From a virus (lineage: Duplodnaviria > Heunggongvirae > Uroviricota > Caudoviricetes), in IMG/VR virus record IMGVR_UViG_2609460344_000008: 23,647 nucleotides of DNA; one strand, given 5' to 3'. This document shows positions 16,298 through 17,082 of this stretch, piece after piece. The notes below the pieces were generated by a model. The model was not told where the DNA came from and made no database searches. It was given only the letters and a program-made list of their open reading frames with translations. Both the position numbers and the translations under genes were made by a program. Position 1 is the first letter of the stretch. Each line of letters opens with the position of its first letter.

Positions 16298-16834
16298 TCA
16301 AACAACCCACCAGTTTGCCTGATTGGATGCCAGCCTTGCAGTTTTTATGGAATTAATTATGCCATGCTCAAGAGCCTTGTTAGCATCCAAAATGGTCGAG
16401 TCTGCTATCAGGGATGCCCACCTAATATGGGTTCCGATGTCGATATTGAACGTCTCAACGAAGCGATCAAGATCGTTATCGAGGCATTTCCCGTACTCTC
16501 TCAATCTGGCATGGTCGGCGGCTGGGGAGGCAAAGCACCATAATAGAGGATGTAACAGGAATCTTGATAATGGGTTTGCGAAACGTTCTGAGCCAGCCAG
16601 GAAAACGATATTAGCTATGGATTCAACATTGCTTATGTTGTGAGTTCTAACGGTAACAGGGAGTGACTTAAGAAAGTTATACGCAGTAAAGCCAGCGGCA
16701 GTTTCCCCTCCCTGACTTGATATATGGATATTTAATTCAGTTGCGCCTTGAGATAATGCGGTGAGACAGTGGTTCTGAAGTTGCCCAACAGTGGCAGTGT
16801 TAACGGGGCATAAGAAATGAATTGTGTGCAGCAT
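16298..16834 (-). CDS. ClpP-fold (ClpP/S49-like) serine peptidase homolog, orphan, co-transcribed with the Mnt-like repressor
   Basis: ...ELNIHISSQGGETAAGFTAYNFLKSLPVTVRTHNISNVESIANIVFLAGSERFANPLSRFLLHPL... aligns by eye with the ClpP core (INSPGG..AG..IYD..PV.T...AASMG...LAG..GKR...P.SR.MIHQP), with candidate Ser and His retained; start ATG overlaps the upstream gene stop (TAATG). Confidence 0.6.
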   Translation of the reverse strand: MLHTIHFLCPVNTATVGQLQNHCLTALSQGATELNIHISSQGGETAAGFTAYNFLKSLPVTVRTHNISNVESIANIVFLAGSERFANPLSRFLLHPLLWCFASPAADHARLREYGKCLDNDLDRFVETFNIDIGTHIRWASLIADSTILDANKALEHGIINSIKTARLASNQANWWVV

Positions 16835-17082
16835 TATTTTTCATCCTTAGCATACATGGTCTTTAGCGTCTCAAGTAGCGCCTCTTTGAATTTATCAGCT
16901 TCTTGGTTAGCGAATCCTTCAAGTGAGCGAGAGCCATCAAGATTATCAACATGTTTTTGAAGGATAAGCACGATCTCTGAGTTCATTGATCTGCCGTTTT
17001 TATCCGCTTCTTGCTGAATGCGTTTCTTTAAATAGTCTGGAATCCTAATCCCCAATGGACTGATATCTCTTGCACCTTTCAT
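16834..17082 (-). CDS. Mnt-like ribbon-helix-helix repressor (P22 immI Mnt homolog); start placed at the internal ATG with GGAGGAGA RBS
   Basis: MKGARDISPLGIRIPDYLKKRIQQEADKNGRSMNSEIVLILQ... carries the RHH signature NGRSMNSE shared with P22 Mnt/Arc; track ORF extends to 17124 but the RBS supports 17082. Confidence 0.75.
   Translation of the reverse strand: MKGARDISPLGIRIPDYLKKRIQQEADKNGRSMNSEIVLILQKHVDNLDGSRSLEGFANQEADKFKEALLETLKTMYAKDEK

Follow-up and report, generated by a model that had tools for sequence, protein, structure and literature searches.

A short ClpP paralog coupled to mnt in the immI cassette of a tailed phage, a candidate moron expressed in the lysogen

The host proteases ClpXP and ClpAP control phage as well as host regulators, among them lambda O, the Mu repressor and transposase, RpoS and SOS protein fragments. 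Here we describe a ClpP-like gene that lies directly 3' of the repressor gene mnt in a tailed phage (Caudoviricetes; IMG/VR record IMGVR_UViG_2609460344_000008). The whole stretch of 23,647 nucleotides that we analysed is called the window below. A first reading, made from the sequence alone, had picked out this gene pair as a possible lysogen-expressed operon for accessory functions or defence. Both open reading frames (ORFs), and all the other elements that this sequence-only reading had described, were found where it had placed them. We find that the 178-amino-acid (aa) product of the ClpP-like gene is almost certainly a genuine but atypical ClpP-fold protein, of the same type as PpClpP1 of Pseudomonas plecoglossicida.

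For the genetic setting, the described system to compare with is the immI region of P22 (mnt-orf59a, sieA, arc, sar, ant). The window has the same regulators, Mnt, Arc, sar RNA and Ant, in the same divergent promoter layout, and in both phages a cargo slot lies 3' of mnt ahead of the cassette boundary. In P22 this slot holds the 59-aa orf59a, which is carried on the mnt transcript before its terminator, and sieA comes after it as a separate transcription unit with its own promoter. The sequence-only reading had used the position of sieA next to mnt to argue for lysogen expression of the peptidase. This analogy was imprecise: the mnt transcript does carry cargo, but that cargo is orf59a and not the independently transcribed sieA. 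In the window, by contrast, the slot is occupied by a ClpP paralog gene that overlaps the mnt stop codon with its start, and siphovirus tail genes L and K flank the cassette, whose P22 counterpart lies between the genes for ejection proteins and tailspike.

For the protein, the characterised relative is PpClpP1, the ClpP1 of P. plecoglossicida (PDB 9UXT; PLoS Pathog 2026, PMC12900304). PpClpP1 is N-terminally truncated, has a Ser-His-Pro 'triad' and forms a homotetradecamer with an unusually wide pore of 42.7 Å; its peptidase activity is ~13-fold lower than that of the canonical paralog and requires the Ser and the His but not the third residue (PMC12900304). It does not bind ClpX, and alone it degrades neither casein nor GFP-ssrA; with canonical ClpP it forms a stable heterotetradecamer in which peptidase activity is raised (PMC12900304). 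Phages are never mentioned in that paper. The third residue is numbered Pro151 there, and in the chain numbering of 9UXT the Pro at the column of ClpP Asp171 is residue 150.

The same concept, a weak non-canonical paralog that gains function in mixed tetradecamers, applies to the two-paralog ClpP1P2 heterocomplexes of Listeria (4RYF), Mycobacterium and P. aeruginosa (ClpP1/ClpP2). Those paralogs, however, are chromosomal and keep their N-terminal regions, and no phage-borne or repressor-linked one is known. A further comparison is with the lambda morons bor and lom. Distant members of the ClpP-like family are single antisense genes at the bor position, between Rz and terminase genes, and they resemble bor and lom in their low guanine-plus-cytosine (GC) content and independent orientation. 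Bor and Lom are outer-membrane proteins, whereas the ClpP-like gene is predicted to encode a cytoplasmic, self-compartmentalising peptidase. In literature searches for ClpP together with immI, Mnt, prophage morons, phiv205-1 or E212, no account of the ClpP-like gene came up, and the earlier statement that no described system has such an operon architecture stands as far as these searches reach.

The 178-aa protein and its relation to ClpP

A phmmer search of PDB sequences with the 178-aa protein gave one outstanding match, 9UXT_A (E=1.6e-35, residues 3-175). The two proteins are of similar length (183 aa for PpClpP1) and 38-40% identical. The sequence-only reading had called the peptidase an orphan; as a full-length homolog of a characterised protein it is not one. 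That reading had also proposed a profile search against the ClpP family, and here its expectation was confirmed: Pfam CLP_protease (PF00574) matches residues 24-165 with 44.4 bits, above the gathering score of 20.2 (E=2.2e-11). The NCBIfam models for ClpP and for head-maturation proteases all score far under their curated cut-offs.

An AlphaFold model of the monomer, built with 28 homologs, has a mean predicted local distance difference test (pLDDT) score of 92.5 and shows the ClpP alpha/beta fold with its handle helix. When this model was compared with the PDB using Foldseek, the top match was again 9UXT, with a template modelling (TM) score of 0.93, a root-mean-square deviation (rmsd) of 1.7 Å and 38% identity, and the next-best was Listeria ClpP1/2 (4RYF). 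Against ClpP from E. coli, S. aureus and Listeria, the TM score was 0.82-0.85 and the rmsd ~2 Å at ~20% identity.

To compare individual residues, we aligned 28 homologs, 31-80% identical to the window protein, and then added E. coli ClpP. The candidate catalytic residues that had been picked out by eye, S72 (in VESIA) and H95 (in LLHPL), correspond to ClpP S97 and H122 and do not vary among the homologs, nor does the ISSxGG oxyanion region. The column of ClpP Asp171, by contrast, is S, A, G or T in the homologs. Structure prediction and superposition bore out the ClpP fold, but by the alignment the canonical Ser-His-Asp triad is not present. D145, in 'ADSTIL', was considered as a third triad residue and rejected, being unconserved and one position off the Asp171 column.

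In the same alignment the 178-aa protein begins level with residue ~26 of E. coli ClpP and thus has no axial-loop region. The hydrophobic pocket is lost as well: of the eight residues with which E. coli ClpP docks the IGF/L loops of ClpX and ClpA and binds acyldepsipeptides (ADEPs), six are polar in the ClpP-like family. Positions Y60, Y62, F82, I90, L114 and L189 are N/Q, H, S, H, N and E/A family-wide, and N, H, S, H, N and K in the window protein.

Compared to canonical ClpP (MEROPS S14), then, the 178-aa protein shares the fold, the Ser-His pair and the oxyanion-hole glycines, but it is only ~20% identical and has lost ~25 N-terminal residues with the axial loops, as well as Asp171. Its likeness to PpClpP1 goes further, and extends to full-length homology, a close structural match, the N-terminal truncation, the conserved Ser and His, a third residue other than Asp and an unconserved ClpX-docking pocket. 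Differences remain: the third position is Ser or Ala in the clade of the 178-aa protein and Pro in PpClpP1, and a conserved C-terminal NWWV motif sets the enterobacterial clade apart. In addition, PpClpP1 is a chromosomal core gene, whereas the window gene is phage cargo coupled to Mnt.

PpClpP1, with its 183 aa, is conserved on the chromosomes of Pseudomonas, Azotobacter and Stutzerimonas. PpClpP1 and its orthologs (Pseudomonas loci L110-L116) adjoin genes for KGG-repeat stress proteins (PF10685) and DUF6555. We considered whether PpClpP1 might itself be a prophage gene and rejected this, given its conserved chromosomal KGG/DUF6555 neighbourhood and its wide distribution in Pseudomonas. The KGG neighbourhood hints at a stationary-phase or stress role, a point not discussed in PMC12900304.

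Short ClpP paralogs form a sizeable family: an exhaustive HMMER scan at E<=1e-10 gave 524 clusters (50% identity level), mostly of 180-190 aa. The ratio of nonsynonymous to synonymous substitution rates (dN/dS) is ~0.08 for the ClpP-like gene when compared with one 80%-identical homolog, which argues that the ORF is not a chance one and is maintained by selection.

Coupling to mnt and recurrence of the pair

The mnt ORF starts from the ATG at 17082, and its 82-aa product reads MKGARDISPLGIRIP...KTMYAKDEK. Its earlier assignment as a Mnt-type ribbon-helix-helix (RHH) repressor proved sound: the Pfam Arc RHH domain matches at E=6e-8, the protein is 33% identical to P22 Mnt over its full length (E=1e-12), and the allele at a related locus, L065, matches Pfam Repressor_Mnt. 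The mnt stop and the ATG of the ClpP-like gene overlap in a TAATG at 16832-16836, with base 16834 in common. Within the final mnt codons (...AAG GAT GAA AAA TAA TG), an AAGGA Shine-Dalgarno sequence at 16844-16848 lies nine bases 5' of this ATG. Judging from this arrangement, the ClpP-like gene is predicted to be translationally coupled to mnt.

We gathered 100 related loci and analysed them by script. The stop/start junction noted in the sequence-only reading recurs among them: 45 of the 46 full-length copies that are >=80% identical to the window protein lie directly 3' of a Mnt-like gene, with the same ATA/ATG overlap and Shine-Dalgarno sequence. In the 46th (L064) the junction is off by one base, and the script found no overlapping upstream ORF. 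In this clade arc, sar and ant are always adjacent. The pair of mnt and the ClpP-like gene is present in 130 of 5426 complete E. coli genomes (~2.4%), and in six isolated phages only: three lambdoid PhiR12 phages, the P22-like phages phiv205-1 and E212, and EC.P3.

Thirteen distinct Mnt proteins, with at least four unrelated N-terminal DNA-binding types, are encoded upstream of these close copies. They are 36-100% identical to the window Mnt, compared to 97-100% for the ClpP-like proteins, and all of them have the last dozen residues (...ETLKTMYGKDEK) in common. At one locus, L038:2346-2564 (IMGVR_UViG_3300045988_119584), an unrelated RHH-like N-terminal region is joined to the last 12 residues of Mnt (ETLKTMYAKDEK); this chimeric protein is encoded directly before the ClpP-like start, and a second mnt, of the window type, lies further upstream. 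The chimera is a sign of recombination at the mnt 3' end. Together with the tail common to all Mnt variants, it suggests that the mobile unit consists of the 3' end of mnt, with its ribosome-binding site, and the ClpP-like gene. A constant ClpP-like gene beside variable Mnt and Ant alleles likewise suggests cargo that is independent of repressor specificity and has been passed on through recombination within the mnt 3' end.

Other immI regions have different contents at this position. In Stx2a_WGPS8 there is no ClpP-like gene and mnt abuts the same left hairpin as in the window, and in Emek the slot is filled by other small ORFs. We considered orf77/orf69 of Salmonella phage Emek as a decayed copy of the ClpP-like gene and rejected it: tblastn found no remnant, and the same slot holds different cargo.

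Outside the close clade the gene stands by itself. Copies that are 52-75% identical, from prophages of Klebsiella, Pantoea, Erwinia, Proteus and Rahnella and from a second E. coli type, are single genes, and the locus scripts found no Mnt, Arc or Ant within 3 kb of any of them. At 22 loci they lie beside lysis genes, several of them between Rz/lysozyme/holin and small terminase genes, and at 13 loci within Mu-like or P2-like tail/baseplate clusters. Counting neighbours of at least 100 aa, the genes on both sides run opposite to the copy in 20 of 34 viral loci. The 33-48% identical copies look mostly chromosomal (Massilia, Methylotenera, an actinomycete metagenome-assembled genome), but at least two are phage-like, one from Pantoea dispersa (L011, 44%) beside Mu-type tail genes and the other (L010) beside terminase-like genes. 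RHH pairing in the neighbourhoods of homologs, proposed earlier as a check, thus holds in the >=80% identical clade and fails in the 52-75% identical prophage copies. The Mnt pairing is genuine and recurs, but only within a single recent clade, and the wider family behaves as a free-standing prophage moron.

The second E. coli prophage clade (L095-L102; ClpP-like protein 52% identical) has a conserved gene for a 182-aa protein (phrog_5483) ~80-630 bp upstream on the same strand, for example at L095:7374-7922 (+). This protein had no Pfam or PADLOC match, and by eye a stretch of it, RNKRSH, resembles the HEPN Rx4H motif. It may form a two-gene module with the ClpP-like gene. In E. coli CE10 (L105; NC_017646, 832.7-840.3 kb), an mnt and ClpP-like pair 100% identical to that of the window is found with arc and ant at the lambda att/bio locus. 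The pair is intact in a heavily deleted P22-like prophage disrupted by insertion sequences, in which the tailspike gene is frameshifted and the DNA-transfer gene truncated. Despite the identity of the two genes, the window does not come from CE10, where the cassette belongs to this degraded prophage.

The immI cassette within the phage

Mnt, Arc, sar RNA, Ant and a divergent control region are all present, and the window therefore contains a complete P22-type immI region (Table 1). Two lambda-type tail genes, L (15543-16241) and K, lie on either side of this cassette. With 40-45% (45% in the ClpP-like gene), its GC content is below the 58-60% of the flanking tail genes, and the ClpP-like gene is antisense to the late genes. 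Foreign GC content, an orientation unlike that of the flanking late genes and variable presence among related phages are all features of a moron.

Table 1. Features of the immI cassette, with positions in the window.
Feature	Position	Strand	Basis
GC-rich hairpin with T-run, left cassette boundary	16250..16267	+	terminator scan
ClpP-like gene, 178-aa N-terminally truncated ClpP paralog of PpClpP1 type	16298..16834	-	Pfam, alignment, AlphaFold, Foldseek
Translational coupling junction (predicted), Shine-Dalgarno and stop/start overlap	16834..16848	-	sequence
mnt, 82-aa Mnt-type ribbon-helix-helix repressor with C-terminal coiled-coil tail	16834..17082	-	Pfam Arc, comparison with P22 Mnt
Divergent control region, Pant-like promoter and three operator-like sites	17083..17191	.	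sequence scans
arc, 46-aa Arc-type repressor	17192..17332	+	Pfam Arc, E=5e-13
sar antisense RNA, between arc and ant	17327..17392	-	Rfam RF00262, 67.6 bits (gathering score 43)
ant, antirepressor with KilA-N and P22_AR_C domains	17394..18323	+	Pfam, 1.6e-22 and 3.8e-29
Hairpin with T-run, terminator after ant, right cassette boundary	18341..18360	+	sequence, end of homology to P22-like phages

The Pant-like promoter in the control region reads TTGACT-16-TAGTAT (17132-17159, + strand). Three related operator-like sites accompany it, the palindrome CTACACAGTGTAG at 17108-17120, ACACGGTGTAG at 17146-17156 and TCACGGTGTAG at 17167-17177. Two of them, ACACGGTGTAG and TCACGGTGTAG, have the core CACGGTG in common with the P22 mnt operator; which of the sites serve as operators is a putative assignment, by likeness to P22.

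The left hairpin is a predicted terminator of rightward, non-antiterminated transcription past gene L. It is also found in the P22-like phiv205-1, in PhiR12_1 and in Stx2a_WGPS8, the last of which is without the ClpP-like gene. Megablast homology to P22-like phages begins at this hairpin and stops at ~18364. For tail gene K the longest ORF begins at 18339, within the terminator hairpin that closes the cassette; the real start is probably the ATG at 18378, which gives a protein of 245 aa and agrees with the PhiR12_1 annotation.

Elsewhere in the tail gene cluster is a full-length gene for an OmpC/OmpF-type porin (14208-15344, + strand; Pfam Porin_1, E=2.8e-142), 5' of gene L and 3' of the ORF at 13664-14005. 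Its GC content is 43.5% compared to ~58% in its neighbours, and it runs in the same direction as the tail genes, with the look of a second moron in this late operon.

Possible roles in the lysogen

The ClpP-like gene is likely to be a moron that is expressed in the lysogen. This is suggested by the low GC content of the cassette, the antisense orientation to the late genes, the conserved junction, the cargo ORF of the P22 mnt transcript, the solitary antisense relatives and the retention of the pair in CE10. As an accessory gene carried by the leftward mnt operon of a mobile immI cassette of P22 type, it would be transcribed from Pmnt together with the maintenance repressor. The ClpP-like protein would thus be produced alongside Mnt in lysogens rather than at the time of late gene expression, as its operon position and P22 biology imply. 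The lysogen expression proposed in the sequence-only reading is in keeping with this position.

If PpClpP1 is a guide, the ClpP-like protein alone would be a wide-pore tetradecamer and a weak peptidase without an ATPase partner. Its main effect would then come from mixed particles with the canonical ClpP of the host, altering the output of ClpXP and ClpAP in the lysogen. The payoff could be stress tolerance, prophage stability, or an effect on the fate of proteins from superinfecting phages. Hetero-assembly with host ClpP is a tentative mechanism, which we would give somewhat less than an even chance. The best overall explanation, a moron of the mnt operon that is made in the lysogen and modulates host Clp proteolysis through co-assembly, seems to us only a little short of one.

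Several observations weigh against this explanation. The terminator scan gave no clear intrinsic terminator for a leftward transcript past the ClpP-like gene. RNA-seq of Kapi1, a P22-like E. coli lysogen without the ClpP-like gene, detected no mnt transcripts (PMC12922286). The Pseudomonas protein from which we extrapolate co-assembly with E. coli ClpP is 38-40% identical, and the biology of PpClpP1 may not transfer, given that it is a chromosomal core gene and not a phage gene. In the Pseudomonas heterocomplex itself, ClpX-dependent degradation was only 'slightly higher' (PMC12900304).

The ClpP-like protein could instead be an effector of superinfection exclusion or defence, a peptidase that destroys a protein of the incoming phage (an ejection or early protein, for example) or triggers abortive infection, comparable to P22 sieA. 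Its gene lies in the lysogen-side operon of immI, the family fills classic moron slots that are often home to exclusion or defence genes, and in the second E. coli clade it comes after the 182-aa phrog_5483 protein with its Rx4H-like motif. However, no PADLOC model matches the ClpP-like protein or its relatives (PADLOC-DB 2.0 gave no family at E<=1 for the ClpP-like protein, Mnt, two distant homologs and two neighbouring proteins). PpClpP1 alone, without an unfoldase partner, cannot degrade proteins, the chromosomal Pseudomonas members are core genes next to stress genes rather than in defence islands, and sieA in P22 is a separate transcription unit. The exclusion or defence role suggested earlier thus found no support, and we consider it unlikely. 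Slightly less likely still is a protease intrinsic to immI, which would degrade Ant, Arc or the primary repressor, thereby clearing leaky antirepressor in lysogens or sharpening the decision; proteolysis of a repressor or antirepressor had also been suggested in the sequence-only reading. In its favour, the coupling to mnt persists whichever of at least four DNA-binding types Mnt belongs to, and Arc, sar and Ant always accompany the pair. Yet the 52-75% identical homologs are solitary morons in prophages without Mnt, Arc or Ant nearby, which makes a function specific to immI or to antirepressor control improbable. Many immI cassettes also work without the ClpP-like gene (P22, Emek and Stx2a_WGPS8), and the gene hardly changes while the Mnt and Ant alleles vary widely. 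A poison subunit, which would cap host ClpP rings or mix into them without offering ATPase docking sites, and so lower ClpXP and ClpAP activity and stabilise particular substrates, would fit the loss of the N-terminal loops and of six of the eight docking-pocket residues, and the failure of PpClpP1 to bind ClpX. We regard this as quite unlikely, since the only experimental data on a homolog show that activity of the mixed particles is equal or higher, with no inhibition.

By far the least probable reading is that the ClpP-like protein is a vestigial or misplaced head-maturation protease, although several annotations point that way: the best PHROG match of the 178-aa protein is phrog_94, 'head maturation protease' (E=7e-21), NCBIfam Clp_rel_HeadMat matches at 49 bits, and the protein carries this label in the PHASTER-derived annotation of phiv205-1 (MN340231). 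The matches are far below the cut-offs of the head-maturation models, at 49.3 bits against 120 for NF045542 and 49.4 against 475 for NF045540. Similarity to the ClpP-related head-maturation proteases (NF045542, phrog_94) is comparably remote, and the 178-aa protein has neither a scaffold nor a capsid fusion. The phage, moreover, has a head protease of its own. As the sequence-only reading had maintained, this enzyme is fused to the capsid gene and separate from the ClpP-like peptidase: ORF 2876..4813 combines Peptidase_S78 and HK97-type Phage_capsid domains in Pfam. We also rejected the ClpP-like gene as a duplicate of this prohead protease, which belongs to S78 and has no similarity to the 178-aa protein in BLASTP. 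P22-like phages with the same cassette have a scaffolding protein gene beside their head genes and no annotated prohead protease. Finally, the ClpP-like gene lies between tail genes L and K, on the strand opposite to the head genes and distant from them, its closest structural relative is a cellular ClpP paralog, and it is under strong purifying selection. The head-protease reading is effectively refuted, and the phiv205-1 label and the phrog_94 match reflect remote ClpP-fold similarity only.

What is already known about the ClpP-like gene is its fold, its family and a plausible biochemical mode. Undescribed, as far as our searches show, are the phage-borne clade, the capture by an mnt operon with a conserved junction and the recurrent occupation of moron slots. 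The gene is a well-defined, testable lead and not a demonstrated new system. Its family is annotated merely as 'ATP-dependent Clp protease proteolytic subunit', 'head maturation protease' or 'hypothetical'. PpClpP1 provides a concrete mechanistic lead, co-assembly with host ClpP, and its structure makes this hypothesis directly testable. Work on this paralog family has until now treated it only as a drug target, and its occurrence in phages in turn suggests a role in biology.

With a subunit of their own in the ClpP barrel, prophages would directly control host proteolysis. It is tempting to go further and suppose that temperate phages of Enterobacteriaceae spread a dedicated ClpP-remodelling subunit, expressed from the mnt operon or from moron promoters, which would reprogram the targets of ClpXP and ClpAP in the lysogen by way of hybrid particles and could stabilise lysogeny or eliminate proteins of superinfecting phages. 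We consider this broader idea doubtful, though not far-fetched. If true, it would be a class of lysogenic conversion or exclusion not recognised before, working by way of the protease machine of the host itself.

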